From: Kiritimatiellia bacterium | GTDB lineage: Bacteria > Verrucomicrobiota > Kiritimatiellia > RFP12 > UBA1067 | DNA length: 64,000 nt | Direction: 5' to 3' | Assembly (NCBI GenBank): GCA_045599445.1 | Contig: JAZRWB010000027.1 | Location: forward strand, 1,344-65,343 | Shown here: positions 16,663 to 59,477 of the stretch, one piece after another | Position numbering within the stretch: the first letter of the stretch is position 1 | Layout: each line of letters opens with the position of its first letter | Notes under the pieces: model-generated | The model's input: only the letters and a program-made list of their open reading frames with translations | Told to the model about the DNA's origin: nothing | Database searches by the model: none | Position numbers and translations under genes: made by a program

Positions 16663-19600
16663 TTATTCGACCGTCGGCGCGGCCTTGACCTCGGCCTCGT
16701 CGGCGGCCTCGTCTCCCGGACGGTACTCGCGTCCGGTCGGCTTAATGAGGCGTCCGGTCACGAAGATCAGCAAGTTACGCTTGATCGTCTGCTCGGCGTG
16801 GCTGCGGAAGAGCCGACCGATGAACGGAAGATCGCCGAGGAACGGGACCTTATCATCCATCGCCTTGCGCTGCTCGGTGATGAGACCGCCCAAAACCACC
16901 GTCGAACCCGGAGTAATGTAGACCTTGGTGTCGATCGAACGGACGTGGAAGAACGGCTGTTCCATCGGCGCGTCGTAATAGGTCATATTGTCCGACTGCG
17001 ACTTGGTGAGGTTGTCGAGCGCGGCTTTCGCCGCATCCGTCTCGGTAGTGATAATCCATTCGGCGGTCTTCGGCGGAATTTCCGCAATCGCCTGAATCGA
17101 GTTGGCGAGACCGTCGAAGATGCCGCCGATGCCCTCGAAGTTCTGGAGCGAGCTATTGCCCGTGAACGGAATCTTCATACCGTAGTTCTTCCAAGTCGGC
17201 TCGTCGACGACCTGCGGCTTGAGCTCGAGCTCAATTACGTTACCGCTCTGGATGTAGGAAGGCGTGACGTCGAGAATAACGCCGACTTCGCGCATCTCGA
17301 AATTCTGGGGCTCGACGATTGCGAGAATCGACGACTGCGAACTGCTGTTGTATCCGCCGCCCGAGCTCGACGACTGGAGCTGGACGTCGTAGTCCTTCGG
17401 ATAGAGGAATTCGGTAACGACCTTGATGGTCGCTTGCTGACCGTTGCTCGTCACGATCTTCGGCGCCGACAAAAGGTCGGTATCGCTACGCTGCGAGAGC
17501 ATGTGGAGAATCATCGAAAGATCCGCGCTACCGAGGAACGCGTTAACCCGCATGAACTGGTCGTTGGTCGACTTGCCTTCGCCGGAAATGTGGTTGCTCA
17601 TCGTCGAGAGATAGCGATTACCATTACCGTATTCGCTACCACCGCCGAAGGCATTAAGCCCGATACGCTCGCGAGAACCGGTGGAGCGATGCCAAGCGGT
17701 TCCCGAAGTAGCGGCGCTCGCCGCCGATCCGCCGGTTCCGGACGTGGTCCCGCCGACATCACGATTGTCGAAATTGAAGCCCGAGGACGAGCCGCCGTCG
17801 CCACTCGCCGAGGAAACCGGCGAGAACGTTCCGCCGTGAATGCCGAGCGCCCGCGCTACGCCACCGTTCAAATTGATGCCGACGTCGTCGTTCAAAATCC
17901 ACTCGAAGCCGAGCGAGTTGAGGTCTTCCTGGGCGACTTCGACGAAGCGAGTCTCGATTTCGATCATCTTCGGCTGGGCGTCGAGCGCTTCCAAAACCTT
18001 CTCGAACTGCGCGAGGTTTTCCAGCGTGTTGTGAACGAAAAGCTTGCCGAGCGCCTTGATGTGGACGATCGACGAACCTTCCGGCCAGTTGACGCCGAGC
18101 TGGGTAAAGACGTTCTTCCAATCGCGCTGTTCCTCGTCGTCCTTCGCGCTCGCGCGGTTGACGGCGCCGAAGCGATTGCCGCCCTTGCCCGAGTTGAGTT
18201 CCTCGGCGGCGGAGGCGACGTGTTCGGAAAGGACGTCTTGAACGTCGTACTGGCGCGAGACCATATCGGAGCTCGCCTCGCCCTTCGCCATCACCATCAC
18301 AACCGAACCGTTCACGACGAACTTGTAATCGACCGTATCGCAGACGAGCTTCAAGGCGTCGTAGAACGAGATGTCGCTCGCGGCGAGCGTGGTAATAACC
18401 GCGAGCCCCGTGGAAGGCGCCTCGACGTCGCCGCCAAAGCCCTCGCTCTCCTCGCTCCTCGCGACGGTAACCGGCTGGGGAGTGCGCAACACGAAGTTAA
18501 ACCCGCGCTTCTCCGGCGGCAGATCCGGACGGTCGTAATCCTTCGACATCTGGCGGAACGAGTCCACCGCCTCGACGATGGTCGCCGGCGGCTTGAACGA
18601 AATGTTCGGCAGGCGCATTTCCTTCATCCGGCGGATGATCTCCTGTTCCTGCGAGCGCTCCGGATCGGCGCCGAGCGCAACCTTGCGGGTCTCGGAATCG
18701 ACTTCGCGAAGCTGGGCGGCGTTAACCGCGTAGACCGGCCGCCACGCCTCGTCGACATCGGCGATCATACCCTCGCGAGCCGCTTCGCGCTCCTGCTTCA
18801 AAATGGTCTGGCGCTTGCGTTCGATCGTCCGTTTAAGCCGCATCGCCTCCTGATTCGCGGGGTCGCTGACGAGCACGATCTCGGCCTCTTCGAGCGCCTT
18901 CTTCATTTCCCTAAGTGCCAAGTACTGGCGGGAACGACGAAGGTGCTTGGCGATATTGTCGCGATCCGACTTGTAGTCCGACTCGTTCTTGCGGTGCTTA
19001 AGCTCGCTGACATCAACCTTGTTCGCTTCGGGATCGCCCTCCTCGAGCCAATCTTCCAAAACCGCGCGCGCCTTCGGGTGGCGCATGTCGACGGCCTTCT
19101 CCATCAACTTGACCGCGCGATCGCGACGACCGTACTCGTCTTCCTGCAAAGCCGAGCGATAAAGCCCCTCGGCGATTCCCTGATCGCACTCGCGACGCAA
19201 CTTCTTCATCGCGGGACGGTCGTTCAAGAGTTTGGCGGCGATACCGTAGTGGCGAACCGCGTCGGTAAACTCCTCGTTCTCCATCGCCGCTCGCGCCTCG
19301 ACGATTTCACGCTTCGCCTGGGCATCGAGCGCGCCGCGACGCAGCCGCTCGGTGGCCGCGAGTTCGGCGACAATCGCCGCATCCCCGAGCGCCACGGGAG
19401 TTATCGCCTTGGGCGCCTCGCCGGCGGCGACCGGCGCTTCGCCGCTTTCGCTCGCCAATTCGTCCAAAAGGTTCAACACATCGTCGACTTCCTGATTGCT
19501 CGCCACCGTCGGAGCGGGCGCGGGAGCAGGCTCGGCAACCGGAGCGGGCTCCGGCTCCGCAACCGGCGCGGGCTCGGGCTCGGCAACCGGAGCAACCGCC

Positions 19601-19761
19601 GGTGTCTCGGCTGGAGCTTCTGCCGGCGTCTCGGCCTGCTCGGCAAGATCCTTCAATAGATCGTCGAGATCATCCTGCGCAAAGCCATACTGCGGAACGG
19701 CGATTGCACCCGCAACTGCGCCAATGGCGACAATTTTCCTGATGTTCGTCATATTGACCAC
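16663..19761 (-). CDS. Secretin (type II secretion / type IV pilus outer-membrane channel; Amuc_1098-type)
   Basis: The C-terminal secretin signature is VVLGGLITEQRKAMDDKVPFLGDLPFIGRLFRSHAEQTIKRNLLIFVTGRLI. It has a signal peptide and a Pro/Ala/Glu-rich N-terminal linker. The start is ambiguous: GTG 19761 or ATG 19752, downstream of AAGGAG at 19770..19765. Confidence 0.9.
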   Translation of the reverse strand: MVNMTNIRKIVAIGAVAGAIAVPQYGFAQDDLDDLLKDLAEQAETPAEAPAETPAVAPVAEPEPAPVAEPEPAPVAEPAPAPAPTVASNQEVDDVLNLLDELASESGEAPVAAGEAPKAITPVALGDAAIVAELAATERLRRGALDAQAKREIVEARAAMENEEFTDAVRHYGIAAKLLNDRPAMKKLRRECDQGIAEGLYRSALQEDEYGRRDRAVKLMEKAVDMRHPKARAVLEDWLEEGDPEANKVDVSELKHRKNESDYKSDRDNIAKHLRRSRQYLALREMKKALEEAEIVLVSDPANQEAMRLKRTIERKRQTILKQEREAAREGMIADVDEAWRPVYAVNAAQLREVDSETRKVALGADPERSQEQEIIRRMKEMRLPNISFKPPATIVEAVDSFRQMSKDYDRPDLPPEKRGFNFVLRTPQPVTVARSEESEGFGGDVEAPSTGLAVITTLAASDISFYDALKLVCDTVDYKFVVNGSVVMVMAKGEASSDMVSRQYDVQDVLSEHVASAAEELNSGKGGNRFGAVNRASAKDDEEQRDWKNVFTQLGVNWPEGSSIVHIKALGKLFVHNTLENLAQFEKVLEALDAQPKMIEIETRFVEVAQEDLNSLGFEWILNDDVGINLNGGVARALGIHGGTFSPVSSASGDGGSSSGFNFDNRDVGGTTSGTGGSAASAATSGTAWHRSTGSRERIGLNAFGGGSEYGNGNRYLSTMSNHISGEGKSTNDQFMRVNAFLGSADLSMILHMLSQRSDTDLLSAPKIVTSNGQQATIKVVTEFLYPKDYDVQLQSSSSGGGYNSSSQSSILAIVEPQNFEMREVGVILDVTPSYIQSGNVIELELKPQVVDEPTWKNYGMKIPFTGNSSLQNFEGIGGIFDGLANSIQAIAEIPPKTAEWIITTETDAAKAALDNLTKSQSDNMTYYDAPMEQPFFHVRSIDTKVYITPGSTVVLGGLITEQRKAMDDKVPFLGDLPFIGRLFRSHAEQTIKRNLLIFVTGRLIKPTGREYRPGDEAADEAEVKAAPTVE
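19529..19600. repeat. 3 x 24-bp in-frame tandem repeat in the secretin N-terminal linker
   Basis: The units are GGCTCGGCAACCGGAGCGGGCTCC, GGCTCCGCAACCGGCGCGGGCTCG and GGCTCGGCAACCGGAGCAACCGCC. They encode (EPAPVAEP)-type repeats: VAPVAEPEPAPVAEPEPAPVAEP. Confidence 0.85.
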
Positions 19762-19783
19762 CTACTCCTTATTTTCAAGCACA

Positions 19784-19812
19784 ATTATACTCTTTATTGT
19801 TTCGTTATTCAA
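19784..19812 (-). promoter_or_regulatory. Sigma70-type promoter for the secretin gene (-35 TTGAAT, 17 nt spacer, -10 TATAAT)
   Basis: The minus strand reads TTGAAT (19812..19807), then 17 nt, then TATAAT (19789..19784). The -35 is built from the upstream gene's last codons and stop (CTT GAA TAA). There are 22 nt between the -10 box and GTG 19761. Confidence 0.6.
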
Positions 19813-20899
19813 GGGTTTTGAGCGTACGTTTCTTGCCGGAGGCGACATCCTCCAACGTGACTTCGGCTTGGTCGCCGACCGGTTTTACGGATAGCACTCG
19901 ATAGCGCTGACCGTTCAGATCGATTTCCGAGCCGCTGATTACCTCAAAGGTCTTGACCTCGCCACGAGTGTAGGTCAGCGTCGCCTGCACGTCGATCGGG
20001 GTTTTGGTCTTGCCGCTCGGCTGGGCGACCAGCTTGACGATCTTATGATCCTGGATACGCTCCAGCGTGGCCTCGGAAACGTCCGCGACCCGCGTAAGCC
20101 CCTCCGCGCCCGGAACCGGAACTCGCGCGGTCTTGGCCTCGTAGTTCTTGACGATGTAGCCCGGCTTGTAGGTCTTGTCGGAATCGGCGATCTCCTCGCC
20201 GACGAGCGCGGTCAGCAAAACGCCCTTCTTCCCGAAGCCGTTGAGCCGGTCGGGGTCGAAGAATTTGAGTCGCCAGCCGGCGGGAATCTGCTGCGCTTCG
20301 CGGAACACGAACGGCACGTACGTCTCCTTGAGCGGAAGGACGATCGCGAGCGAGTCGAGATAGTCGGGGTGGCTCTTCGCGTCCGTCGGATCGGTCTTCG
20401 CCTCGAATTCCTCGAGGTTGGTGAATCCGTCGCCGTCCTTGTCCTCGTCGGCGTCGGCGGCGTTCGCCGGATTCAAACCGTATTTCCGCTCCCAATCGTC
20501 GGGCAGACCGTCCTTGTCCGCGTCGAGAATCGCGGCCACGGCCACTTCCTGTTCCTCGCCGCAGAACGGACACTTCGGAAACTTCTTCACGTCACCGCCG
20601 ATTACCTTTTGGCATTTCTTGCATTTAACGCGCACTTCGCTCGCGAGAAAGCTCTCCTTGTCCTCGGCGACGGTCGCGAGCGACGCGGGGTTCTTGACGA
20701 ATTTCACCGCAGAGGCGAATTCCGCCATGTCCTCTTCCGCCACTTCGGTTTTCGCCGGCTTCATCCGCTCGACGCGCAACTTCACTTCGGCAACCGCGCT
20801 TTCCTCGTCCGCGGCGTCGGTAAGCGCGAAAAACGCGAGCGCTCCCAATAGTGCCACCGCTCCGAGGCCGGCCACCAGCCATTCGTAATGCTGCTTCAT
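19805..20899 (-). CDS. Membrane-anchored pilus-cluster protein with a zinc ribbon and TSP3-like Ca-binding motifs (Amuc_1099 position)
   Basis: N-terminal TM segment (WLVAGLGAVALLGALAFFAL). CKKCQKV...CPFCGEE zinc ribbon (~20555-20626). DADKDGLPDDWERKYGLNP and DADEDKDGDGFTNLEEFEAKTDP (~20365-20530). ATGA overlap with the upstream gene. The family call rests on synteny only. Confidence 0.6.
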   Translation of the reverse strand: MKQHYEWLVAGLGAVALLGALAFFALTDAADEESAVAEVKLRVERMKPAKTEVAEEDMAEFASAVKFVKNPASLATVAEDKESFLASEVRVKCKKCQKVIGGDVKKFPKCPFCGEEQEVAVAAILDADKDGLPDDWERKYGLNPANAADADEDKDGDGFTNLEEFEAKTDPTDAKSHPDYLDSLAIVLPLKETYVPFVFREAQQIPAGWRLKFFDPDRLNGFGKKGVLLTALVGEEIADSDKTYKPGYIVKNYEAKTARVPVPGAEGLTRVADVSEATLERIQDHKIVKLVAQPSGKTKTPIDVQATLTYTRGEVKTFEVISGSEIDLNGQRYRVLSVKPVGDQAEVTLEDVASGKKRTLKTLE

Positions 20900-21834
20900 T
20901 TCGCGCCCTCCTCCAGCGAATTGAAATCGTAAACCGCGAATTTGAGATTGACCGTGAACGGCGGATCCGTCACGGGGTCGGCGACCTTGACGTTACCGAC
21001 GGGCTTCTCGGCCTCGACCGTCGCCTCGGCTCCGCGACGCGCGCGCCGAGACGATCTCGCCTCGGCCTTCTTCTCGCCGGCGAGGGCGGAAGCGAGCGAA
21101 TCCTGATCGTGCTGAAAACCAAGACTTTCGACGACGACGAATCGGTCGGCGACGGTAAGCGCGTTAAGCGCCTTGACGAGCGCCGCCGGGCGCGCGACGA
21201 ACGAAAACTCGTAACGCATGGCCTTGGGAACGGCGGATTTTTCCGATGCTTTCGCGTTCTTCTTCGCCGGCTTCCGGTTCTTGGGCGAAGTCGCGGGCTT
21301 GGCGGCCGCTTCGTCCTTGATAACGGCGAGCGACACGAACTTCTCGACGCCCGCGCCCTTCAACGCGTCGGCGACGGTCGCGACGTCGTCCCACTGGCGC
21401 TGCAACGTTCCGAGCTCCGCTTCGGAGGGCATCGCGCCGCCGTTGATGTAGTCCTTAAAGGGCCCGTATTCGAATTCCGCGTCGATGCGCTTGGCGTCGC
21501 GACGCAAAAACTCCTTGAACGCCGCCGGCGTGGTCGGCTCGAGCTTGCGATCGCCGGCGGCGACGAGTCGCTCCGCGTCGTCGCGCCAGGTCGCGAAGGT
21601 CGATGCCGCCGCTTTCAGCGCCTTGACGTTGCCGGATGTCGGATAAATGGATTTCCGGGAGAGTTGCTCCGCCTTGACGAGACAGGTCTCGAGGCCGTCC
21701 GTACCCTCTTCGTAGTCGCCTTCGAGCGCGACGACCTTTTCGCCATAGGCCCGGTAGGCGAGATATGCGGCGACGACGACGATCAGCGCGAGCGCGCCAC
21801 CGACGATCGCCAGAAGTTTCTTCGTCTTCGTCAT
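20896..21834 (-). CDS. Amuc_1100-family pilus-like membrane protein (312 aa)
   Basis: Start ATG 21834 (MTKTKKLLAIVGGALALIVVVAAYL TM anchor) overlaps the PilM-like stop as ATGA. TTPAAFKEFL, LVKALNALTVADRFVVVESLGF and VNLKFAVYDFN resemble segments of A. muciniphila Amuc_1100 as I remember it. This needs alignment to confirm. Confidence 0.65.
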   Translation of the reverse strand: MTKTKKLLAIVGGALALIVVVAAYLAYRAYGEKVVALEGDYEEGTDGLETCLVKAEQLSRKSIYPTSGNVKALKAAASTFATWRDDAERLVAAGDRKLEPTTPAAFKEFLRRDAKRIDAEFEYGPFKDYINGGAMPSEAELGTLQRQWDDVATVADALKGAGVEKFVSLAVIKDEAAAKPATSPKNRKPAKKNAKASEKSAVPKAMRYEFSFVARPAALVKALNALTVADRFVVVESLGFQHDQDSLASALAGEKKAEARSSRRARRGAEATVEAEKPVGNVKVADPVTDPPFTVNLKFAVYDFNSLEEGAK

Positions 21835-23435
21835 TTGAACTTCACCTCCACCGTAAACTGTTCGAGTTCGCCGCCCTTGCCGAGCCGCACCTGTTCGACG
21901 ATCTTGATGCTCGTCGGATCGATCGCGGACTTGCCCTTGAGCTTCTCGACCACCGTCTCGGAAACGGTCTTGCCGTTCGCGCCCTTGACGCGATCGCTCC
22001 ACGAACGAATCGTGATCCGACCGTCATTCGACCACTTTTCGATCCACATCCCCGGCAAAAGCGCTTCCCGAACCGCGTTGAGCCGCTGCACCGTCGCCGA
22101 ACGCGAGAGCATCAGATCCTTGAGCGCCGTCGCCTCGGACTTGGCCGCGTCGAGCTCCTTGGCGGCCGCGGTGATTTCGCGATCGACCGCGCTCAAGGCG
22201 CTCACCGTCGTCGCCACCGCGTCGCGCTGCGCGGCGATGGTCGTCGCCTCGCGATGGTAGGTCATCATTACCGCGACAAGCGCAAGCGCCATCATCGCGC
22301 CGCCGGCGACGAGATACGGGATGCGGGCGCGCTCGGCGCGATCCGCGACGATTGACGGCGGCAGGAGATTGATTGCGAAGCGCGCCACTCCCGCCACGTG
22401 CAAGGCGATGCCAACCGTCGAGGCGATGATGGGGCTCGCATTTTCGAGCTCGGAAACGTCGAGCGCTCCGAAAGCCGTTTTTTCGAAAGGATTGAGGTAT
22501 TCGACTTCGATGCCCAGCGATTCGGCGAAGAACCGGTCGATTTGCGGCAGGAGGGCGCTACCACCGGTAAGATAGAGCTTGACCGGGGCGTTGCCGTGCT
22601 GCTGGCTGCGATAGAAGTTAATCGATCGGGAAATCTCGGCGTGGAGCCGCGTCATCACCGCCCGGCACGCCTTGGAGACGCGATCGACGATTTCGTCGGC
22701 GTCCTCGGTAACGCCGCCCTCGGCGACGTAGCCCTTCTCGCGCTTCAAGGCCTCCGCCTCTTCGAGCGAACAGCCGAGCGCGCCGGAAATCTCCTTGGTG
22801 ATCGCATTGCCCGCGATCGGAATCGAACGGTTGTAGAGCTTGTCGCCCTCGACGACCACGAGCGAAGTCGTGCGCGCGCCGATATCGAGAACGATGGCGC
22901 ACGCCTCCGCCTCGTCGGGACGGTTGAACTTGAGCGCGTTGGTAATCGCGAGCGGCGAAACGTCCACGTAATCGGGGCTGAAGCCAAGTCCGGTCAACGC
23001 CGAGGTAATCGCCTCGATCTGGTCGACCTTGGCCGCGACGATCATCACCGACTTGTCGCCGTTCTCGGCGTCGCCGAGCACCTGCCGGTCGCAGACCATC
23101 TCGTCGATCGGGAAGGGAATGCCCTGCTCGATTTCGTAGCGAACGAGCTGCTCGAACTTCTCCGCGCCGCCGACCATCGGAATCGACGCGAACTTCGGAA
23201 ACGTCATCTGCCCCGAAATCGCGAGCGCGAGCTTGCCGGGCTTAAAGCCCTTCGCGCCGATGATTTCGCGCAAGGCGGGAGCGAGAATGGTTTCGACGTT
23301 ACCGCCGTCGAGCGGCGAGGCGAGTTCGGCGACACCGTATTTAAGGAGCTTTACCGCCCCTTTCGCGCCGAGCTCGTACTCCGCGAGCGCGACGTTCGCC
23401 GCGCCGATGTTGAGAGTCTGAATTGTCTTGGCCAT
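21831..23435 (-). CDS. PilM-like actin-fold pilus assembly protein fused to a PilN-like TM/coiled-coil segment (Amuc_1101-type)
   Basis: The N-terminal ~340 aa are PilM/FtsA-like (LNIGAANVALAEYEL, VMIVAAKVDQIEAITSAL, IVLDIGARTTSLVVV, LYLTGGSALLPQIDRFF). Next come FAINLLPPSIV and the TM segment IPYLVAGGAMMALALVAVMM (~22250-22400). A coiled-coil and beta region follows, as in PilN. Confidence 0.8.
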   Translation of the reverse strand: MAKTIQTLNIGAANVALAEYELGAKGAVKLLKYGVAELASPLDGGNVETILAPALREIIGAKGFKPGKLALAISGQMTFPKFASIPMVGGAEKFEQLVRYEIEQGIPFPIDEMVCDRQVLGDAENGDKSVMIVAAKVDQIEAITSALTGLGFSPDYVDVSPLAITNALKFNRPDEAEACAIVLDIGARTTSLVVVEGDKLYNRSIPIAGNAITKEISGALGCSLEEAEALKREKGYVAEGGVTEDADEIVDRVSKACRAVMTRLHAEISRSINFYRSQQHGNAPVKLYLTGGSALLPQIDRFFAESLGIEVEYLNPFEKTAFGALDVSELENASPIIASTVGIALHVAGVARFAINLLPPSIVADRAERARIPYLVAGGAMMALALVAVMMTYHREATTIAAQRDAVATTVSALSAVDREITAAAKELDAAKSEATALKDLMLSRSATVQRLNAVREALLPGMWIEKWSNDGRITIRSWSDRVKGANGKTVSETVVEKLKGKSAIDPTSIKIVEQVRLGKGGELEQFTVEVKFK

Positions 23436-23453
23436 GGTTTCTCCGAAATCAGT

Positions 23454-24152
23454 TTATTGGATCGTCGCCTCGTAGTCGTTCGGGCAAACGAGACCCCAAA
23501 TCGTCTTGGAGCGATCGACGAGTCCCTGACGGCGCTCGATCATGGGCTTGCCATCCTCGGTCTTGGCGTTCATGATTTGCGAGTCTTCCCAGAACTTGGT
23601 TCCCGTTTCGATACCCTTGATCTCGCTCCAGCAATCTCCGCCGAGAGTATCGCCCTTCTCGTTGGAAATTTCCAGACCCACCGCCTTGGGCTCGCCGTAG
23701 CGCTCCAAGTACGACGGCGGCAATACCACCGACGCGCCGTGGGTACCGGCCGGAATGTTGAAATAGGCAACGGTCGTCGTAAAGTAGCTGTAGGGCGAAA
23801 GACCTTCGCGATTGCCCTTGTTCTCCTTCGCGGTCTTGGTTTCCAGGAGGACGTGCCAAGTGAAAGTAAGCTGGTCGAGGAACCGTGACTCGTCGGTGCC
23901 GAATGTAGTGTACTTCGTCTTGAGAACAATCCACTGGCGCGGCTTCTTGAAGTACTCGTTGAGACCGTTGATGTTCGGCGCCATCGCGAGCGCGCCCTGG
24001 CCGAGCTGGACTTGTTCGACGAGAATCTTCGCCGCCTTGCCCGTGGTTTCCATTTCGTCGTTGCCCGCCATCGCCTTTTGCTTGCCGCGGGTCGCCGCCA
24101 ACGCCGTCACCGCCGCCATCGCCACCGTCGCAACTACCATCAACTGCTTCAT
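23454..24152 (-). CDS. Secreted protein, first gene of the pilus-like cluster (Amuc_1102 position), 232 aa
   Basis: Start ATG 24152 (MKQLMVVATVAMAAVTALAA signal peptide), preceded by GCGAGG. The longer track ORF (to 24707) is an Arg/Gly-rich artefact overlapping kpsF. The family call rests on synteny only. Confidence 0.6.
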   Translation of the reverse strand: MKQLMVVATVAMAAVTALAATRGKQKAMAGNDEMETTGKAAKILVEQVQLGQGALAMAPNINGLNEYFKKPRQWIVLKTKYTTFGTDESRFLDQLTFTWHVLLETKTAKENKGNREGLSPYSYFTTTVAYFNIPAGTHGASVVLPPSYLERYGEPKAVGLEISNEKGDTLGGDCWSEIKGIETGTKFWEDSQIMNAKTEDGKPMIERRQGLVDRSKTIWGLVCPNDYEATIQ

Positions 24153-24168
24153 TTTGTACCTCGCTTTC

Positions 24169-24177
24169 TTTATAACA
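24169..24177 (-). promoter_or_regulatory. Extended -10-like box TGTTATAAA for the pilus-like cluster, built from the last kpsF codons and stop
   Basis: The minus strand reads G-TGT-TAT-AAA (24177..24169). This overlaps the kpsF end ...GTG TTA TAA. It lies 16 nt upstream of ATG 24152. There is one mismatch to TATAAT. Confidence 0.4.
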
Positions 24178-27329: not shown

Positions 27330-27334
27330 CTCTC

Positions 27335-39838: not shown

Positions 39839-39842
39839 TGCT

Positions 39843-50616: not shown

Positions 50617-50637
50617 GATACTATCCCAACTTTGGAA

Positions 50638-50646
50638 ATTATACCA
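50638..50646 (-). promoter_or_regulatory. Extended -10 box TGGTATAAT for the giant-protein unit
   Basis: The minus strand reads TGGTATAAT (50646..50638), 21 nt upstream of GTG 50616 and just downstream of the triple hairpin repeat. Confidence 0.6.
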
Positions 50647-50691
50647 AAGTCAGTCGCCCGAGGCAATGGGAAAATTGAGGTGCAGTTGGGC

Positions 50692-50760
50692 TGACCCCTC
50701 GGGAGGGGTGGGCATGACCCCTCGGGAGGGGTAGGGCCGACCCCTCGGGAGGGGTAGGGC
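50692..50760. repeat. Three tandem ~23-bp GC-rich hairpin units (GACCCCTCGGGAGGGGTAGGGC)
   Basis: The units are TGACCCCTCGGGAGGGGTGGGCA, TGACCCCTCGGGAGGGGTAGGGCC and GACCCCTCGGGAGGGGTAGGGC. Each contains ACCCC-TCGGGA-GGGGT (5-7 bp stem). They lie in the largest intergenic gap of the window (281 bp), between the pseudopilin operon and the giant-protein unit. No U-tracts are present. Confidence 0.85.
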
Positions 50761-50897
50761 TTATGACCGCCGTAATTTACACTTTTTCAATAAACCGGGG
50801 GGCTATATTTAGGAGGGCACCGCCGCCGAGCGTCGCGTCTACCTCGACGACGGCGAGTAAGGCGGGGAAATGTAGAACGTAGAGTGTTGAATTTACT

Positions 50898-51830: not shown

Positions 51831-51843
51831 TTTCCGGCTCCCG

Positions 51844-54798
51844 TTAATCGAATTGATGATAGAAAAGAACTCGCATACGATGATTGCCCGGCGCATTAGT
51901 CCAGCGCGGATCGCGCCAAACGAGCGCCACCGCGCGCGAACTCAGCTGCGGCGGAATTTGCCCAACCGCCCCACCTCCCATCATCATCGGCTCGGCGCGC
52001 ACGAAAATCAAAAAGAGCTGTTGCTTCACCGCAAAGCATTCGCGCCAAAATCCGTAAAGGAACTTGCGATCGACCTCGTCCAATTTATCGGTCTTGTCGG
52101 AAAGTTCGACTCCGCAAAATTCCTTCTCGCCGCCGGCGGAGCTTCCGCTCCAATCCAACGAATCGTATGCCTTCTCGAAGATGCTTTGAGCACCTTCGCC
52201 ACCATGTTCGCGGGCGGTAGAATTGAGACGATTCCGAAGCTCCATCGCGACTTCGCGCAAATCGTCCCACGCGAATCTGGCCTTGGAATTCGCTTCGCTG
52301 AACGCATAACTTTTATTGAAGGAGTCAGCCGTTTCCGGAATATTCGCCTCCGCCGCCAAATTAGTGGAAGCGACGCTCCAATCATAAGGCGTATTGGCGA
52401 AGGCCGGCATCAGTCCATCGGCCGTAGGCGCAAAAGGATTGAGCCGATAATCTCCCTGCCCGGCAATTAGCCCAAGCCCTTCGAACGAATCGCGGGTAAC
52501 ACCGCTACGCGGATAGCAATTATAGGTCTTCCACATAAGCGAACCGTTGAGGCAATCGCCGATGGAGGATGGGTAGTCCGCCCGATAGTCGGACGCGATA
52601 TCGCAAGACCCGGACATGAAGCTCGCGTTATTATTGAAGTTCCCGCTGATACGCGGCAAAAACGCGAGTTCGTAAACCGACTGCAGCTGCTCGCGATTGG
52701 AGACGAACATGAAGATATCGCGATCGCGACCGCCACCCAAAACCCCGTGCACCGCGTCAAGCCACGTCGACTTGCTCGCATCGGAACAGGTCATCCAATT
52801 CTCCGGCGCATGATTGTAGCGCGGATCCAAACAAATCAAATTCGTCGGCATAAAAGCCATCGCCTTGGGCTCTGCATCGATGGCGGCGATGTTAAAAAGA
52901 TCGGCCGCATCCGCCTTGAAGCGCAGAATCGGACACGCATCGCCTACAACCTTCCGGGCAAAGGGATCGCCCGACGACAACCCATCCGCACCCGCCGGGA
53001 CCTGATCCACCGCGTCCGCGCCTTCCTTAACGCGAATGAACGCCGCGGCGTAGAGGTTGACCGACGGCAACGTTCCGTTCTTGAATCCGGCCAAGAAGGA
53101 CTTGTCATCGCCAAACTCCTCAGACGCCATCTTAAGCGGGCTTTCGCCGTCGGCGACAAGCGGCGGCAAATTGCAATGCGCCGCGACAATCTCGCCGCTT
53201 TCCGGGTCGTCGGAGGATTTATAACGACGGGTAATGGTGAAAAGCGTCTTGGGTTGCAGCGAGCCGATGCCGTTTAACCGCATCGGCGAACAATCCATTA
53301 CCACGTCCGCTTCCCTTGTCTTGTTGGCGAAATCCGCGTCGATTGCGCCGGGGCAGCCGATGGTAATTATCCCGTTATCGGCGTAAGTCGCTCCCTGCTC
53401 AAAGTCACCGTCAACCGGCGCAAGCAGATCGCCGCCCCGAAGCCGCACGTCGGCGGAAGTGCAAAGGAAAAGCTTTACGCACGCTTCGGCCGAGAAATTG
53501 CGCCCGGAGAGATCGACGCGCTTGAAGGGAAATACCACCGTCGGGCGCAGCGTGCTCTTGCCGAGCTCAGCGCCAAGCTGAGCGATATCGAGACGATATT
53601 CGAAATCCTGCAGACGATAGTTTTCCTCTTCACCGGCGGGCCGCGGATCGCCGACAGGGCTGCCAACGAGCTTAAGCGAAGTCTTAATGTCGGTCTTAAC
53701 TCCAACGATCATCGGAACCTGTTCGACGGTCGGCACCGCCAACGACACGGGAACGTGATCGCGGTCGAGATAATCGTACAGGCAACAATAATCCATAACC
53801 GAAAGCTCGTTCTTGAACTCGCCTTGCCAAGCGTCGATGCAATCGGAAATCTTCGCGTGCCCACTGCCGCTGAATTGAAAGGGTTGACCATCGGCGGTGT
53901 TGAGATTCAATAACTCCTCCCCTTCCGTCGTCTCGCCGACAATATCTAAAGGCAAGTAACTATCGGTGATGAAGTTCATCATTCGCAGGGTTTCGGCACG
54001 GGCGTCGCTTCTATCGGTCGAAGAAATGCCGTAGAAGTTGTCGCCGCTTTTTAGATATTGGCAAAACGGACTGTTGACCTCGCCAAATTTTCTCTCGCCC
54101 ATAGCAAGATTCCAGTCCGCCAGCGAAACGAGCGGTATCTTCTCCTCGGTTATCGCCTGTTTGCCACCCTCGTCGTCTTCTGCCAGGTCCTCGCGGAAGT
54201 CCTCCATGAACGCATCCCATTTGTCCGCTCCCGTAGAGGAGGAGCCGCTCGCGCCGTGCTTCTCAAACACATGCGATAGCGTAAGCTTGCGATTGCCGAA
54301 ATTGCGTCGGCTGTCGGCCTTAAGCCGGTTGATGTCGAGGCAATGCGAAACGTCAATCGCGGTAAAGGCGAAGCGCCCGGCATCGAAGCTGAATTTCTCC
54401 CATTTAGCCGAAGACGACAGACGGGAGAATCGCCGTGCCTCGTTGACCAGCGGCGGCGGAATGTAGGCGAGTCCTTCAAGCGTCAGCGTGGACACGGTTT
54501 CCGTCGGCGAAACGAGCCGCGAACCCACGTACACTCCGTTCGTCCAGTTGTTGCCGTTCGCGTTATCCGGCACTCCGGGATGCGGATTGTTGCCGATAGC
54601 GCCGTCGATTCGCTGCATTGCCTCGGCAAGCGCGGCCTTGGCAAGTTGACGCGAAAGCGAAGTGCGGCGAAGATAGCTCGATGGCAAGCGCGAAGAGCGC
54701 AAATAAGCGGAAAGCCCAACGGCGGAAATCACCATAAAAGCGAGCATTCCGAGAACGATCAGGAGGGCGCTACCCTTTCTCGAAGACATCGCGCTCAT
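51844..54798 (-). CDS. GspK-like minor pseudopilin, greatly enlarged (984 aa)
   Basis: The N-terminus SRKGSALLIVLGMLAFMVISAVGLSAY matches the GspK-type pattern (R/K-G-x-A-L-L-x-V-L and no Glu5). The remaining ~940 aa I cannot assign. There is a 1-nt TAATG overlap with the upstream gene. Confidence 0.65.
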   Translation of the reverse strand: MSAMSSRKGSALLIVLGMLAFMVISAVGLSAYLRSSRLPSSYLRRTSLSRQLAKAALAEAMQRIDGAIGNNPHPGVPDNANGNNWTNGVYVGSRLVSPTETVSTLTLEGLAYIPPPLVNEARRFSRLSSSAKWEKFSFDAGRFAFTAIDVSHCLDINRLKADSRRNFGNRKLTLSHVFEKHGASGSSSTGADKWDAFMEDFREDLAEDDEGGKQAITEEKIPLVSLADWNLAMGERKFGEVNSPFCQYLKSGDNFYGISSTDRSDARAETLRMMNFITDSYLPLDIVGETTEGEELLNLNTADGQPFQFSGSGHAKISDCIDAWQGEFKNELSVMDYCCLYDYLDRDHVPVSLAVPTVEQVPMIVGVKTDIKTSLKLVGSPVGDPRPAGEEENYRLQDFEYRLDIAQLGAELGKSTLRPTVVFPFKRVDLSGRNFSAEACVKLFLCTSADVRLRGGDLLAPVDGDFEQGATYADNGIITIGCPGAIDADFANKTREADVVMDCSPMRLNGIGSLQPKTLFTITRRYKSSDDPESGEIVAAHCNLPPLVADGESPLKMASEEFGDDKSFLAGFKNGTLPSVNLYAAAFIRVKEGADAVDQVPAGADGLSSGDPFARKVVGDACPILRFKADAADLFNIAAIDAEPKAMAFMPTNLICLDPRYNHAPENWMTCSDASKSTWLDAVHGVLGGGRDRDIFMFVSNREQLQSVYELAFLPRISGNFNNNASFMSGSCDIASDYRADYPSSIGDCLNGSLMWKTYNCYPRSGVTRDSFEGLGLIAGQGDYRLNPFAPTADGLMPAFANTPYDWSVASTNLAAEANIPETADSFNKSYAFSEANSKARFAWDDLREVAMELRNRLNSTAREHGGEGAQSIFEKAYDSLDWSGSSAGGEKEFCGVELSDKTDKLDEVDRKFLYGFWRECFAVKQQLFLIFVRAEPMMMGGGAVGQIPPQLSSRAVALVWRDPRWTNAPGNHRMRVLFYHQFD

Positions 54799-55256
54799 TA
54801 GTTACGCTCCTCGATGGTGAGCCGATTGAAGTTCGGTATACAACAGCCGCTGACGTATTTCCACTTGTCCGGCGACGGCACCTTGCCGGATTTGATCGTA
54901 ACCCGGTAAGGGTGGCCCCACGGATCGAGAATCTCCCCGCTACCGCTTAACGAGGCGTTGAACAAAACCGGAATATCCGCCGCAGCGTCGCCGCCGCTGG
55001 CATGACCGAGGATGAACCCGAGCGAATCCTCGCCGGCCGGCTGATCGTCCATATCCTCGGGAAGCTCGTAATCCCCGCCGCGGGCGAAATTCTCGTAGGC
55101 GAGAATCGCGTTCGTCATTTCCTTCACCTCGGCGGTCGCCTTTTCGATTCGCGCCCGCTTCTGAGCCCCGATTACCGAGGTGCTGACCGAAGCGGTGAGA
55201 ATCATGATCATCGCGATCACGACCACCAACTCGACCAAAGTAAACGCCTTTTTCAT
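54798..55256 (-). CDS. GspG-like pseudopilin (152 aa)
   Basis: ATG 55256 (ATGA overlap) gives MKKAFTLVELVVVIAMIMIL. KRARIEKATAEVKEMTNAILAYE and LDPWGHPYRV are typical of T2SS major pseudopilin G. Confidence 0.8.
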   Translation of the reverse strand: MKKAFTLVELVVVIAMIMILTASVSTSVIGAQKRARIEKATAEVKEMTNAILAYENFARGGDYELPEDMDDQPAGEDSLGFILGHASGGDAAADIPVLFNASLSGSGEILDPWGHPYRVTIKSGKVPSPDKWKYVSGCCIPNFNRLTIEERN

Positions 55257-55747
55257 TGCAAACTTTCGCTTTCCGGCCAAGTGGTGATATCGTCGTAGGT
55301 GTCCGCTTCGCCGTCAGGGCCCCACGATGTCACTCCAACGGTGTAGCTCTTGACGGAACGGGCGCCACCCTCGTTGCCGACCGCCTGGTTCGCCATCTGC
55401 TGGATATCAATGCTGCTGTTAAACCTCGCCATCTCGCTCGATTCGCCGGAAGTCGGGGAATTCGCCCCTTTGGCGGCGTTACCTACACATGCCCGAGTAC
55501 GCAAAACACCATTTTCATCCCAAAGCCCGGTTACGAGACCGACTTCGTTGCCGTGAAAAAACACATTGTCCGCGCCCTTTTGCAACGACGCAATGTTACC
55601 ACGGGTAACGTCCATGTCGACAACGCCCGCGACACCAGTGCGCCAGGCGATCGACGACTGGTTGAAAATCATAGTGAGAATCGTCACCAGCATCCCCAGC
55701 AGAAGCGATGCCACCAGAAGCTCGAGAATGGTAAAGCCCCGCTTCAT
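55253..55747 (-). CDS. Pseudopilin (164 aa; GspJ/PilW-like N-terminus)
   Basis: MKRGFTILELLVASLLLGMLVTILTMIF is a prepilin-type N-terminal methylation motif with Glu5. Confidence 0.75.
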   Translation of the reverse strand: MKRGFTILELLVASLLLGMLVTILTMIFNQSSIAWRTGVAGVVDMDVTRGNIASLQKGADNVFFHGNEVGLVTGLWDENGVLRTRACVGNAAKGANSPTSGESSEMARFNSSIDIQQMANQAVGNEGGARSVKSYTVGVTSWGPDGEADTYDDITTWPESESLQ

Positions 55748-56271
55748 TTGTTCGGGTCTCCTTGGAAGCGCACTTCGGTGTAGTAAATCGGCATCGCCAA
55801 AAGCAAGCTGGTTTTGGCGGTCGCTCGAAAAGCCAACTTGGCAATCGGCGAATCCTTCTCGCGAATCAGCACGACTCCGAAATCCATGCCGGAAGCCCCG
55901 GCGGCCCCGTTTAACGTACCCAAGACCGTACTGACCGGATAACCGACGCGATTCAACTCATCAAGCGCCGACTTCGCCACGGACGTAATGTCGTTTTTTA
56001 CCATCCCCGTGGATTCGTTCAGATAATCGGCCCATCCGCGAGCGGGCGTGGTTTTGAGCGCGTTAAACTTCGACCACGCCAAGTCCTTGTCTCCGCAGGC
56101 CATGATAAACGGCCCCAAGACGGCATCGGCGAGCGCCGAACCCGCGACATCTTCACGGCTTTGAGTGTTTTCGCGGAAGCCAAGCGAATAAAGGGAAACC
56201 ATCGCAAGCACTCCTCCCGCCATGATCATCATGGCGAGCGTGACTTCAATTAACGTAAACGCCTTTTTCAT
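55744..56271 (-). CDS. Pseudopilin (175 aa; GspI/PilV-like N-terminus)
   Basis: MKKAFTLIEVTLAMMIMAGGVLAMVSLY is a prepilin-type motif with Glu5. Confidence 0.75.
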   Translation of the reverse strand: MKKAFTLIEVTLAMMIMAGGVLAMVSLYSLGFRENTQSREDVAGSALADAVLGPFIMACGDKDLAWSKFNALKTTPARGWADYLNESTGMVKNDITSVAKSALDELNRVGYPVSTVLGTLNGAAGASGMDFGVVLIREKDSPIAKLAFRATAKTSLLLAMPIYYTEVRFQGDPNK

Positions 56272-56274
56272 CGC

Positions 56275-57096
56275 TTAATTCGATTGACTCGCCGTCGGAT
56301 TCTCGGTCGTGCCCACCTTGCTGGCCGTCAAATCCCCACCGCTACCCTGCCGCAAGGCGTAGATTCCGATGGTGGAGCCGCCTGCGCCGCCATCGCTGGA
56401 AAACACCATCGTGCTTTCCCCCTTGATTGGATCGGTGACGCTAGTCGAAAAACTGCTACCGAAAATATAGCCCTTGGGTAAGGTCAATCGCTGAAACTCC
56501 ATACCGTACTGGTCGCCGCCTTTCCATTCACCCGCACTACCGTCCAAACAGACGAAGCCGTATTGTTCGGGGATGAAATGGTCGTCGGCCGCGCCAAGTC
56601 CTTGCTCGGAGACGTTCAATAGCGAATATTCCGCGTCACCGGACTTTTTGACCAATTCGCTAATTCGACTGTATTTAAGCTCGTTTTGCGAAAGGCGATA
56701 TAGACGCATGCCACGCTCCTTTTTGTTGGATTCCGCGCCCTCCGCCATCGTATCGTAGGAGTTGCTCAAATCGGAAAATTCGTCGTACAGCGTATCGCCC
56801 TGGACGCGCGAGATTCTGCCGGTCATACGCACGGCGATTGCCTGCCCGACCACCACTTCGCGTTCCGTATCGTTGCCGCGCAAAGTTTCGTTGTAGAAAT
56901 AAATCGCCGTCGGCCGACGCTCGATGAGCGCACGTTCGTAAACCGCGTGGATGAATTGACTCGCCACTTGCACGGCCGAACGCTCCTCCATTCCGCGGTT
57001 AATCGCCCGATACGCACCGACCGAAATCGTCCCCAAAAGGCCCATGATGCCAATCACGACCAATAGCTCGACTAAGGTAAATCCGCGCGTTTTCAT
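56275..57096 (-). CDS. Pseudopilin (273 aa; GspH/FimT-like N-terminus)
   Basis: MKTRGFTLVELLVVIGIMGLLGTISVGAY is followed by ERSAVQVASQFIHAVYERALIERRPTAIYF. Confidence 0.75.
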   Translation of the reverse strand: MKTRGFTLVELLVVIGIMGLLGTISVGAYRAINRGMEERSAVQVASQFIHAVYERALIERRPTAIYFYNETLRGNDTEREVVVGQAIAVRMTGRISRVQGDTLYDEFSDLSNSYDTMAEGAESNKKERGMRLYRLSQNELKYSRISELVKKSGDAEYSLLNVSEQGLGAADDHFIPEQYGFVCLDGSAGEWKGGDQYGMEFQRLTLPKGYIFGSSFSTSVTDPIKGESTMVFSSDGGAGGSTIGIYALRQGSGGDLTASKVGTTENPTASQSN

Positions 57097-57662
57097 TTGG
57101 TAACCGACATGTGATCGGTGGGAACGGAGTAGATTAACTTGAAGCGGCGAAAATAGCCGTGCTCCGGCTCGGGATAACCGAACACCATTTCATTGATGCG
57201 GTTCAACTTCTTGGGCGACGACTTGGAACCGTGAATCGCCGTGTGCATATCCATACCCGTGGTCTTGTCGCCGATGGACCCGGCGCGCGCCACAAAAAGA
57301 CTCATAACGTCCAGCAGCGGACTGGTATTGCCGTCCACCGATTTGCGCACCACATCGCGAATGCAATCGTCGGTCTCCGAAGTCGTGAGCTGATAACGGT
57401 CGGGATCAGTTTGGTTATTAGCGCCAATCACGTTACCGCCCTGTTGCACATTTTCCGGATCAAATCCGCCAGGCCACTGGTTGTATTGCGCGTAATAGGT
57501 CATGATGCCCGCTTGAACGGTTCTCACCAATGCATCCGCGCGGTTGATTCTAGCTTGCTTGATAGCACCGGTGGCGGCGGTAATTACAATCGTCAGAAGT
57601 ACGGCGAGAATGCCGACCACCATCATCAACTCCACAATGGTAAAACCGCGCCGTTTCATCAT
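57093..57662 (-). CDS. Pseudopilin (189 aa; GspG-like)
   Basis: ATG 57662 (ATGA overlap) gives MMKRRGFTIVELMMVVGILAVLLTIV. The longer track ORF (to 57932) is an Arg-rich extension overlapping the upstream gene. Confidence 0.8.
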   Translation of the reverse strand: MMKRRGFTIVELMMVVGILAVLLTIVITAATGAIKQARINRADALVRTVQAGIMTYYAQYNQWPGGFDPENVQQGGNVIGANNQTDPDRYQLTTSETDDCIRDVVRKSVDGNTSPLLDVMSLFVARAGSIGDKTTGMDMHTAIHGSKSSPKKLNRINEMVFGYPEPEHGYFRRFKLIYSVPTDHMSVTK

Positions 57663-58252
57663 TTGGCCCTTCGCGCCTGTCCGGCGCCCCAACTGTAAAC
57701 GTCGTCTTTGCGAGCGCCGATCGAATACGCTTCGAGTTTGCCGTCCTTGCCGGCGCACCAAACGATCGCCGAAGCGCGAACCTTCACGCTTTCGCCGCCG
57801 ACATCGGCCTCGACGATGCCATCGCCGTCCATATCCACCGCATAATGGACGATGTGATCGAAATCCGTCCCTCGATAAACATCGCCCAAAGAAGCGCTCG
57901 CGCCTTTGCGCTTGACAACGGCCGCGCCCCACGGATCAAGGATTCCCAAACGATCAAGGCCAATCAATCGATCCTGTTCGCGATTATAATTTAGCGGAAA
58001 ATAATTGCCGCGGGCGAGCGGTAGCGCATTCTGCGCGTCCAACACCCCTTGCTCCTCCATACCCTTAGGCCAAAATCCCTCTCGCTGATACATGGACGAG
58101 AGCGCCGTCGCCACGTTGTGCACAAGTTCCTGCGCCTTGGCCTTGTCGGCGGTTTTGGTCATTTTGGAATATGCCGCCATCGACGCCGCCATCAAAATAG
58201 CGATAATCCCGATTACGATCAGCATTTCAATCAAAGTAAAACCGCGTTTCAT
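57659..58252 (-). CDS. Pseudopilin (197 aa; GspG-like, candidate major subunit)
   Basis: MKRGFTLIEMLIVIGIIAILMAASMAAYSKMTKTADKAKAQELV, with a C-terminal ...WCAGKDGK pilin-like end. Confidence 0.8.
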   Translation of the reverse strand: MKRGFTLIEMLIVIGIIAILMAASMAAYSKMTKTADKAKAQELVHNVATALSSMYQREGFWPKGMEEQGVLDAQNALPLARGNYFPLNYNREQDRLIGLDRLGILDPWGAAVVKRKGASASLGDVYRGTDFDHIVHYAVDMDGDGIVEADVGGESVKVRASAIVWCAGKDGKLEAYSIGARKDDVYSWGAGQARRAK

Positions 58253-58265
58253 GGCATCCTCCGAA

Positions 58266-59438
58266 TCAATTGCTCATACTGGTGATGTCGTCCTCAATCC
58301 AAAGCCCGATTAGCGGATTTGCCCTGTCACCCATACTTTCGCGAGGAATCCAAGGCGGAAAAGTCCGTCCGTTGGGACCGGCCGACCACAACACGTATCC
58401 CTGATGCGGTGAAGGCGAATAATAGTAAAATTGGTTGCCCCAGCCATCGCGCACCGTGACCTTATCCAGCACATATTGCTGACTGTGCGAACCGCCACCG
58501 CCCGGCGTATAGACATCGATGCCGAAATTGTCATTGCGTAAATTCTTGTCGTAGTAATCTCCGGAGGTAATGTTGATTCCGAACAGCGTCCAGGAATGCT
58601 CGCACGATACCATACCCTCGAGATTGGGCATCCACCGAGCCGTTACCGCCTGAGTGGGAATGTTAATCACCCGCGCAAGATCCGAGCGGTTTTTGCCGGA
58701 ATTGATCACACTGTTATGCAATTCGCTCCAGCCGAAATTGTTGCCGTTGAACGGATCGCTGGGCGCATCGTTATTGTCGGTCCACTGCCTATATTTGGTG
58801 TAAAACGACTCATCGCCGTTCATCATTACGAGATAGCGCGGCAGCAAATAGCTCATAAGCCCGAACTTGAAGAGCTGCAACTTGCGCCAATCCACTTCGT
58901 TGGTATAGGGGTTGAACCGACCGATGCTACTGCCATTGCCCACGCCGTCGTCGAACCCGGCCTCCAACTTCGCCTTGGTATCCTCGCTCAAGTCGCTACT
59001 GTCGGAGGCCTTGATCTTGAGCTCGTCGCTAATTCGCTCAATTCTTTCCTTCCAGCCGCTGGGAAACGGAAAACACGCTTCGACCGGCTGGGACCGGCAC
59101 GCCGCACTGACTTGCTGCCAGGCTCTCAACTCTTCTTGGTCGCCGATTTTCTTCCACCCCCAGATCTCGTCGTTTACCTCGTCATTCTGATTTTGCACAT
59201 CTTGCGACTCGGCAACGGCATAAATGTCGCGCGTACCATGTACTTTGACTGGAGGATAGTTGCCGAACGCGGCATAATATCCAGATAGACAATTTTCCAG
59301 CCGTTGCATACGATTAATGGTGGTGGCGCGACGTTTGACGTCATCGCCGACCGTTCCCAGACGAACGACCATCGTCATCAAAGTTACGAGAACGACGACG
59401 ACAATCAGAAGCTCGACGAGCGTGAAGCCCTTTTTCAT
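58266..59438 (-). CDS. Large pseudopilin (390 aa), first gene of the operon
   Basis: ATG 59438 gives MKKGFTLVELLIVVVVLVTLMTMVV. The C-terminus ...YYYSPSPHQGYVLWSAGPNG is pilin-like. The longer track ORF start (59477) lies inside the predicted promoter. Confidence 0.8.
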   Translation of the reverse strand: MKKGFTLVELLIVVVVLVTLMTMVVRLGTVGDDVKRRATTINRMQRLENCLSGYYAAFGNYPPVKVHGTRDIYAVAESQDVQNQNDEVNDEIWGWKKIGDQEELRAWQQVSAACRSQPVEACFPFPSGWKERIERISDELKIKASDSSDLSEDTKAKLEAGFDDGVGNGSSIGRFNPYTNEVDWRKLQLFKFGLMSYLLPRYLVMMNGDESFYTKYRQWTDNNDAPSDPFNGNNFGWSELHNSVINSGKNRSDLARVINIPTQAVTARWMPNLEGMVSCEHSWTLFGINITSGDYYDKNLRNDNFGIDVYTPGGGGSHSQQYVLDKVTVRDGWGNQFYYYSPSPHQGYVLWSAGPNGRTFPPWIPRESMGDRANPLIGLWIEDDITSMSN

Positions 59439-59447
59439 ATATCCTAA

Positions 59448-59477
59448 ATTATACCACAACCGCGCCCGCGAGGGCAA
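59448..59477 (-). promoter_or_regulatory. Promoter of the pseudopilin operon (-35 TTGCCC, 18 nt spacer, extended -10 TGGTATAAT)
   Basis: The minus strand reads TTGCCC (59477..59472), then 18 nt ending in TG-G, then TATAAT (59453..59448). Only 9 nt (TTAGGATAT) separate the -10 box from ATG 59438. Confidence 0.6.

Follow-up and report, generated by a model that had tools for sequence, protein, structure and literature searches.

A predicted Amuc_1098 to Amuc_1102-type pilus-like cluster of a Kiritimatiellia bacterium, in a probable chain of promoter-delimited units

The Amuc_1098 to Amuc_1102 cluster of Akkermansia muciniphila (Ottman et al. 2017, PMC5332112) has the gene order Amuc_1102, the PilM-like Amuc_1101, Amuc_1100, Amuc_1099 and secretin, with coaE/rho after the secretin. 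The fold of Amuc_1100, with two alpha-beta-beta motifs, is reported to be like that of type IV pilus (T4P) and type II secretion system (T2SS) proteins (PMC13119276). Here we analyse a stretch of 64,000 nucleotides (nt) from a Kiritimatiellia bacterium (GenBank assembly GCA_045599445.1, contig JAZRWB010000027.1, positions 1,344 to 65,343; hereafter the window), in which a predicted cluster of this type, again with coaE and rho after the secretin, is preceded by giant genes for secreted proteins and by ackA-pta-kpsF. A preliminary description of this DNA had read everything between positions 59477 and 16663 as possibly one 43-kb locus that may encode a single envelope machine. We propose, with a probability of about 0.6, that the region is instead a chain of promoter-delimited units, set among genes that share one direction over 54 kb or more, with a clade-specific operon fusion.

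The gene map was drawn from the open reading frame (ORF) listing and from Pfam and NCBIfam scans of the window. The five cluster genes, all on the minus strand, encode an Amuc_1102 homologue of 232 amino acids (aa) with a Sec signal peptide (23454-24152), an Amuc_1101 homologue that combines, in one fusion protein, a PilM domain and a PilN-like segment carrying the INLLP motif and a transmembrane helix (21831-23435), Amuc_1100 and Amuc_1099 homologues of 312 aa (20896-21834) and 364 aa (19805-20899, with a TSP3 repeat), and an Amuc_1098-type secretin of 1029 aa (16663-19752) in which Pfam recognises the Secretin domain. Their best NCBIfam matches are the Amuc_1098 to Amuc_1102 families, with E-values of 6.5e-128 (Amuc_1098), 1.5e-25 (Amuc_1099), 2.6e-11 (Amuc_1100), 4e-114 (Amuc_1101) and 3.1e-5 (Amuc_1102). 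Only the Amuc_1099 family reaches its NCBI equivalog cut-off (90.5 bits against 50); the other four miss theirs (428 vs 750, 43.5 vs 180, 382.6 vs 650 and 23.7 vs 55 bits), so that the proteins are regarded as distant homologues and not as equivalogs.

Profiles built from 23 Kiritimatiellia sequences were aligned by hhalign with Akkermansia Amuc_1100 (probability 97%, E 5.9e-11, 292 columns) and Amuc_1102 (probability 96%, E 3.4e-9). The Amuc_1100-like profile also matches the Amuc_1100 crystal structures PDB 6LAD and 6KNY (E 3e-5); single-sequence PDB searches with the Amuc_1100 and Amuc_1102 homologues gave no match, nor did the Amuc_1102 profile, and single-sequence AlphaFold models of the Amuc_1099 and Amuc_1102 homologues (pLDDT 41 and 49) are too poor for a fold search. 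The Amuc_1101 homologue matches PilM_2 (E 8e-35) and TIGR01175 (149.5 bits, cut-off 133), and is recognised as a PilM-PilN fusion by the residues I355-N-L-L-P359, invariant in 12 sequences, and the hydrophobic segment that follows them. With five families in the same order on one strand, the cluster is assigned to the Amuc_1098-1102 type. Among the papers in the library searched, none connects Kiritimatiellae to Amuc_1100 or describes which genes neighbour Amuc_1098-1102.

An Amuc_1100 query led, with a 99% match, to Akkermansia proteins, and two Akkermansia contigs were inspected. There the cluster has a divergent intergenic start, with peptidase M42 and lgt on the other strand, and lacks ackA, pta, kpsF or a giant gene upstream, whereas all of these precede the cluster in the window. 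The stretch with secretin, coaE and rho lies at 14702-19752 in the window, at 12075-16911 in L085 and at 10227-15013 in L086; the Akkermansia contigs have a single fused coaE-rho ORF (673 or 654 aa), and the window has separate genes (16153-16659 and 14702-16171) with a 19-nt overlap. The PilM protein has 534 aa here and about 612 there, and the secretin N-terminus carries a Pro/Ala-rich repeat in place of TPR matches. This repeat (PAPVAEPE) is encoded near the N-terminus by a 24-nt tandem repeat of 3.1 copies at 19520-19593.

The cluster also recalls type IVa pilMNOPQ operons, such as those of Pseudomonas and Myxococcus, in having an actin-like PilM, the INLLP motif of PilN, bitopic periplasmic proteins and a secretin in the same order; the Amuc_1100 and Amuc_1099 homologues may have PilO- and PilP-like roles. 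It differs from them in the fusion of PilM and PilN, in the extra Amuc_1102-type gene that leads the cluster, and in that no pilin, PilB/T, PilC or PilD is encoded in the window. The Pfam and NCBIfam scans found no T2SSE, T2SSF or peptidase A24 match in the window, and a type II secretion system is not recognised there, its only components being the secretin and the pseudopilins. Judging from T4P and T2SS, a PilMNOPQ-like module also needs pilins, an ATPase and a platform protein to function, and these would have to be encoded elsewhere.

Sigma-70-like promoters were searched for on the gene strand with a strict rule (TTG and at least 4/6 matches, a spacer of 16-18 nt, and TAnnnT with at least 5/6 matches). 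Ten sites match, 9 of them directly upstream of a gene or tRNA start, and TGNTATAAT occurs 9 times where 0.49 are expected. Three strict sites, all on the minus strand, lie between 16663 and 59477: that of the pseudopilin operon (59477-59448, TTGCCC-18-TATAAT with TGGTATAAT, ending 9 nt before the ATG at 59438), that of p792, the first gene of the giant-protein unit (50666-50638, TTGCCT-17-TATAAT, inside a 281-nt spacer), and that of the secretin (19812-19784, TTGAAT-17-TATAAT, its -35 element within the last codons of the Amuc_1099 homologue). Between 50638 and 19812 no strict sigma-70-like site is found. The rho gene has its promoter within the coding sequence of coaE (16397-16364), some 200 nt ahead of its ATG. 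This rho site accounts for 34 of the 59 strict extended -10 motifs found in 1.4 Mb of loci. Intrinsic-terminator scans gave no gene-strand site at any junction, and fewer sites than shuffles, and a sigma-54 pattern showed no enrichment.

The idea of a single 43-kb unit does not agree with the promoters at 50666-50638 and 19812-19784, both of which are conserved in relatives. The 281-bp spacer (50617-50897) had been taken as the only gap above 50 bp; it is there, but a second, of 52 nt, precedes the secretin and goes with a strongly conserved promoter that had been overlooked. The remaining gaps in 16663-59477 are of at most 18 nt or are overlaps; in the stretch that begins with p792 and ends with the Amuc_1099 homologue (50616-19805), their values lie between -8 and 18 nt.

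The region would then consist of three units followed by rho. The first would be the pseudopilin operon, with its own promoter and with the structured spacer after it. The second would start at the promoter in the spacer and would comprise p792, two giant genes, a lipoprotein gene, ackA-pta-kpsF and the homologues of Amuc_1102, Amuc_1101, Amuc_1100 and Amuc_1099, spanning about 31 kb (50616-19805) with gaps of at most 18 nt and no strict promoter inside. The third would be the secretin gene and coaE on their own conserved promoter, after which rho would be read from the promoter inside coaE. In gut and rumen Kiritimatiellia the ackA-pta-kpsF genes and the PilMNOP-like genes would share a transcript with the upstream giant gene or be reached by read-through from it. 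The fusion would place an envelope module for which there is constitutive need next to housekeeping genes with high expression, without turning the three loci into one dedicated machine.

At the centre of this second unit, ackA (acetate kinase, 26187-27329), pta (phosphotransacetylase, 25153-26190) and kpsF (a kpsF/kdsD-type arabinose-5-phosphate isomerase with SIS and two CBS domains, 24170-25156) follow one another on the minus strand. As had been reported, ackA starts 5 nt past the 12-kb gene, with its ATG at 27329 just after the stop of the gene for a 4037-aa protein. ackA and pta are adjacent and translationally coupled through a 4-nt overlap, as in the ackA-pta operon of fermentative bacteria, and the GTG start of kpsF overlaps the pta stop (GTGA). 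Unlike that operon, the pair has no recognisable promoter of its own here or in 57 of 59 relatives, and it is embedded between the 12-kb gene and kpsF.

The closest PilM-like homologues are proteins of Kiritimatiellae/Kiritimatiellia metagenome-assembled genomes (MAGs) from gut and rumen samples, and a genome scan with the PilM alignment gave 80 species-level loci with 10-kb flanks, at PilM identities of 45-96%. By tblastn, the order giant, ackA, pta, kpsF, Amuc_1102, PilM, Amuc_1100, Amuc_1099, secretin is found wherever the contig is long enough, and so in practically all of some 85 contigs of gut and rumen Kiritimatiellia. The adjacencies are giant/ackA in 57/58 loci, ackA/pta in 68/68, pta/kpsF in 72/74, kpsF/Amuc_1102 in 75/75, Amuc_1102/PilM in 77/77, PilM/Amuc_1100 in 78/78, Amuc_1100/Amuc_1099 in 75/75 and Amuc_1099/secretin in 68/68; the flanking control, secretin/coaE, is kept in 34/57, with many different substitute neighbours at that junction. 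The two pta/kpsF breaks belong to one subclade, in which a gene for an H+-translocating pyrophosphatase lies between (L070, 5960-8221; L074, 1859-4120). Placed on a PilM tree (neighbour-joining, from this single protein), the changes number at least 7 for secretin/coaE, 1 for pta/kpsF and 0 for the other junctions. The promoter survey of the same 80 loci runs parallel: strict sites precede the secretin in 68/73 loci and rho in 33/34, and they are rare before ackA (2/59), pta (1/67), kpsF (2/72), the Amuc_1102 homologue (7/74), pilM (0/76) and the Amuc_1100 (0/78) and Amuc_1099 homologues (2/74).

Taken together, the middle string of giant genes, ackA-pta-kpsF and PilMNOP-like genes, unusually stable within its clade, is most simply explained as a lineage-specific operon fusion, whose co-transcription we infer from the maps and promoter counts. 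The coupling to acetate genes that had been suggested thus finds backing within the gut and rumen clade, where adjacency is conserved and promoters are few, and finds none outside it.

The same maps would arise by neutral linkage, if each block had an unrecognised promoter and the order were merely inherited in a young, tightly packed and strand-biased clade, an alternative that we consider unlikely. It draws on the pyrophosphatase gene, inserted between pta and kpsF without harm, on hairpins after the giant gene in many relatives, on outgroups in which the upstream neighbours differ, and on the conservation of unrelated gene pairs as well, given below. It has to accommodate, however, that the ancient secretin/coaE junction broke at least 7 times on the PilM tree against 0-1 times for the eight internal junctions, that a scan which finds the secretin and rho promoters in more than 90% of loci sees almost none before seven consecutive genes, and that many junctions are shorter than 30 nt, too short for a promoter.

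Several points weigh against the operon fusion itself. Adjacency was scored from tblastn segments of all window proteins on MAG contigs, and synteny alone is no proof of co-function, since the unrelated coaE and rho are likewise adjacent in 34/34 loci (and rho and uvrA in 13/16). The promoter rule sees consensus-like sigma-70 sites only, and weak or alternative-sigma promoters may precede ackA or the Amuc_1102 homologue. The preliminary description had placed the kpsF stop inside a promoter-like box: the TAA does lie inside TGTTATAAA, but the box is weak, its TATAAA lacking the final T, and it is absent in most relatives. One subclade does appear to carry a good promoter at the kpsF stop, as a good TGATACAAT covers that stop, at the same position as TGTTATAAA, in 7 of 75 relatives, all of this subclade. 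The giant-to-ackA spacer is shorter than 40 nt in about half of the relatives; among 32 spacers of at least 40 nt, 19 contain a strong hairpin, at which the giant-gene transcript could terminate. It is also odd for central fermentation genes to rely on a transcript of 12-23 kb. We set apart a stricter form of the fusion, in which ackA-pta and the KDO-pathway gene kpsF, without a promoter of their own, would be made only mid-way in an obligatory 20-30 kb polycistron running from a hypervariable giant operon into the PilMNOP-like genes. This seems to us a doubtful proposition; were it true, one promoter would tie together central fermentation, lipopolysaccharide precursor supply and an envelope machine.

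The genes at the head of the fused unit, all on the minus strand, encode p792, a 792-aa secreted protein (48238-50616) that matches no family and for which the searches gave only 8 homologues, a 2800-aa secreted protein with a Gly_rich_2 domain (39843-48245), a predicted lipoprotein of 125 aa (39461-39838), and the 4037-aa secreted protein with LamG and TSP3 repeats (27335-39448); signal peptides of the 792-, 2800- and 4037-aa proteins were judged by eye at the N-termini. At the start of the lipoprotein gene, TGATATAAT (39827-39819) is a candidate internal -10 element, and similar elements are seen in relatives; it also encodes KYDI and might be a by-product of that coding sequence.

A giant ORF fills the entire upstream flank in nearly all loci. 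Giant proteins that are otherwise about 30% identical share the C-terminal motif ...SGF[FY][KR]VxIE[QK] in 51/59 homologues (window 27338-27380; L001-L080), and p792 ends in a similar tail, ...GYNFFRLELRFE (window 48241-48280). These tails, the giant ORF abutting ackA in 57/58 loci and filling the flank, and the TSP3 repeats common to the 4037-aa protein and the Amuc_1099 homologue would fit a model in which the Amuc-type secretin system has the giants as its cargo or partners, a tie that would keep them adjacent, with ackA-pta-kpsF as hitch-hikers between them. We think this distinctly improbable: TSP3 repeats are common calcium-binding modules, in outgroups that carry the five-gene cluster no giant gene of the same direction lies upstream, the window encodes neither an ATPase nor a platform of T2SS type, and the giant block appears to recombine apart from the cluster. 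The last point comes from the comparison with the sister genome L001, in which nucleotide identity is 91.6-94.5% from 27340 down to 11975 (ackA to uvrA), 68-73% in the 4037-aa gene and a patchy 69-82% in p792 and the 2800-aa gene, with the step exactly at the giant stop and ackA start (27335-27340). Identity to L002 is uniform, at about 75%. The step points to a replaced allele of the giant-protein block or to its diversifying evolution and, because it falls at the giant/ackA junction, this block appears to evolve as a module separate from the cluster. GC content is likewise 0.54-0.58 in the giant and pseudopilin genes, compared with 0.60-0.63 in the core.

Outside the clade the string dissolves. 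Environmental loci were taken from a metagenome scan seeded with mid-distance PilM representatives (PilM identity 33-41%). They keep Amuc_1102, PilM, (Amuc_1100), Amuc_1099 and secretin, and about two thirds of them coaE and rho too. In at least 13 environmental loci the contig covers 5-10 kb upstream of the cluster, and in none of them do ackA, pta, kpsF or giant homologues lie there; the neighbours vary (LeuA; rpsD-rpoA-rplQ-GspF; histidine kinase; MurD; iPGM; other genes), and the giant-ackA-pta-kpsF arrangement was found in the metagenome scan only on rumen-type contigs (PilM 44-45%). A general functional link between the loci thus finds no support, given Akkermansia and at least 13 environmental lineages, all of which carry the cluster without these genes. 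The deeply conserved unit, judged from gene order in Kiritimatiellia, Akkermansia and about two thirds of the environmental loci, putatively of the Planctomycetes-Verrucomicrobia-Chlamydiae group, would be the five-gene cluster with coaE-rho.

The pseudopilin operon (59438-50898, minus strand) has eight prepilin-type genes and one for a 984-aa protein. The first pseudopilin has 390 aa, with a prepilin-type N-terminus and a T2SS-G-like stretch (58266-59438). It is followed by six short prepilin-type proteins (54798-58252), overlapping or at most 13 nt apart, of 197 aa (57659-58252), 189 aa (57093-57662), 273 aa (56275-57096), 175 aa (55744-56271), 164 aa (55253-55747) and 153 aa (54798-55259), by the 984-aa protein with a weak GspK-like N-terminus and no further assignment (51844-54798), and by a last pseudopilin of 332 aa with N_methyl and weak DUF1559 matches (50898-51896). 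The string of prepilin-type genes, the GspG-like first gene and the large protein with a GspK-like N-terminus resemble a T2SS gspG-K operon. The differences lie in the number of genes, in matches that cover N-terminal segments only and fall below family cut-offs, and in the absence of adjoining gspCDEFLMO genes. The spacer that follows holds a GC hairpin, then a tandem of a 23-nt unit with the hairpin CCCCTCCCGAGGGG (3.2 copies, 50688-50761; in this spacer only), then the p792 promoter, and folds strongly (z = -3.9).

The junction between pseudopilin and giant genes can be viewed in two close relatives and one distant one, p792 having 8 homologues. In L081, the closest (PilM 96%, on the contig of L001), the p792 homologue is separated from homologues of the 984-aa protein and of the last pseudopilin by five other genes, which span 7.6 kb and encode among others a rotamase and a protein of 1359 aa. 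In the next (L082, PilM 78%), YqeY, guanylate kinase, flavoprotein and other housekeeping genes precede the p792 homologue, with no pseudopilin within 10 kb. The p792 promoter is kept in both despite these differing upstream genes, so the giant-protein unit starts at p792, whatever lies before it. The pseudopilins, which had been counted as a linked part of the whole, have their own promoter and a link that is interrupted in L081 and absent in L082; the operon is a separate, movable neighbour.

These observations bear on the proposal of one envelope machine (fibre, cargo and channel) encoded by a single 43-kb super-operon coupled to acetate metabolism. Same strand, tiny gaps and complementary content speak for it: the pseudopilin operon lacks a secretin and platform, and the Amuc-type cluster lacks a class-III pilin. 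Single outgroup lineages moreover have a platform gene or pseudopilin genes near the cluster, which in L114 (5155-11560) comes directly after rpsD-rpoA-rplQ and a T2SS-F (GspF/PilC) gene and in L159 lies near pseudopilin genes. We nevertheless hold it to be highly improbable, and the gene order in relatives largely refutes it. The region is broken up by two promoters and a structured spacer, neither of the two closest relatives keeps the pseudopilin link intact, unrelated genes take part in the same-strand run, and the window encodes no T2SS/T4P ATPase, platform protein or prepilin peptidase. Prepilin-type ORFs, sought by a regex for their N-termini, lie within 10 kb of the cluster in 0 of 65 gut and 1 of 31 outgroup loci; the regex recovers 5 of the 8 window pseudopilins, and a flank of at most 10 kb says little about a locus 27 kb away. 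Linkage thus lends no support to one machine of pilins, giants and channel. Whether the three loci stay together in relatives has a divided answer: the giants with ackA-pta-kpsF and the cluster do so within one clade and not outside it, and the link of the pseudopilins is already broken in the two closest relatives.

What remains is the common orientation. Read downwards from the high coordinates, the order, with every gene on the minus strand, is AAA/DUF4143, the pseudopilins, the 281-nt spacer, the giants, ackA-pta-kpsF, the five-gene cluster and coaE, followed by rho, uvrA, recA, an SNF transporter and tRNA-Ser; the high-coordinate flank, with AAA/DUF4143, radical-SAM, ruvC, rsmI and NUDIX genes, is also on the minus strand. 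The statement that all genes between 16663 and 59477 are on this strand holds for 21/21 in the ORF listing. The two coordinates are arbitrary as locus borders, because the run continues into housekeeping genes on both sides, from tRNA-Ser (8854; 8.85 kb) to the window end, over at least 54 kb; the sole plus-strand gene of the window is at 8349-8717. GC skew has a single sign over the whole window, and the gene calls of two relatives are on one strand in 11/11 and 20/20 cases. Given the one-sign skew and the unrelated genes in the run, the orientation fits a leading-strand bias: it is a property of the genome region and not of a locus, and the run probably sits on the leading strand.

Some further features of the window and of the relatives were recorded. 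A third giant secreted protein, of 2167 aa, is encoded outside the region at 974-7477 (GC 0.51-0.53) with its own promoter at 7533-7504 and no family match. The plus-strand gene at 8349-8717 belongs to the 23S rRNA-intervening-sequence protein family, with TGATATAAT at 8316-8324, and beside it tRNA-Ser(TGA) (8854-8941, minus strand) has its own promoter at 8984-8957. An Rfam scan returned this tRNA alone, with no leader or riboswitch in the region. Tandem octamer repeats (GAATGnnn in one arm, nnnCATTC in the other) fill the intergenic spacers of many relatives (L003-L027, L045, L047, L052, L053 and others) and can fold into long hairpins, much as a family of REP-like elements would.

The Amuc_1100-type cluster of Akkermansia has been studied because of how it affects the host; a second gut phylum is now seen to have clear homologues of it, and the deeply conserved unit of such clusters can now be defined as five genes together with coaE-rho. 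If the co-transcription proposed here should prove false, the region would serve as a warning that same-strand packing in a strand-biased genome is no evidence of a super-operon. If it is true, these gut and rumen bacteria would have an unusual wiring of central metabolism to envelope genes, placed behind a fast-evolving giant surface protein.

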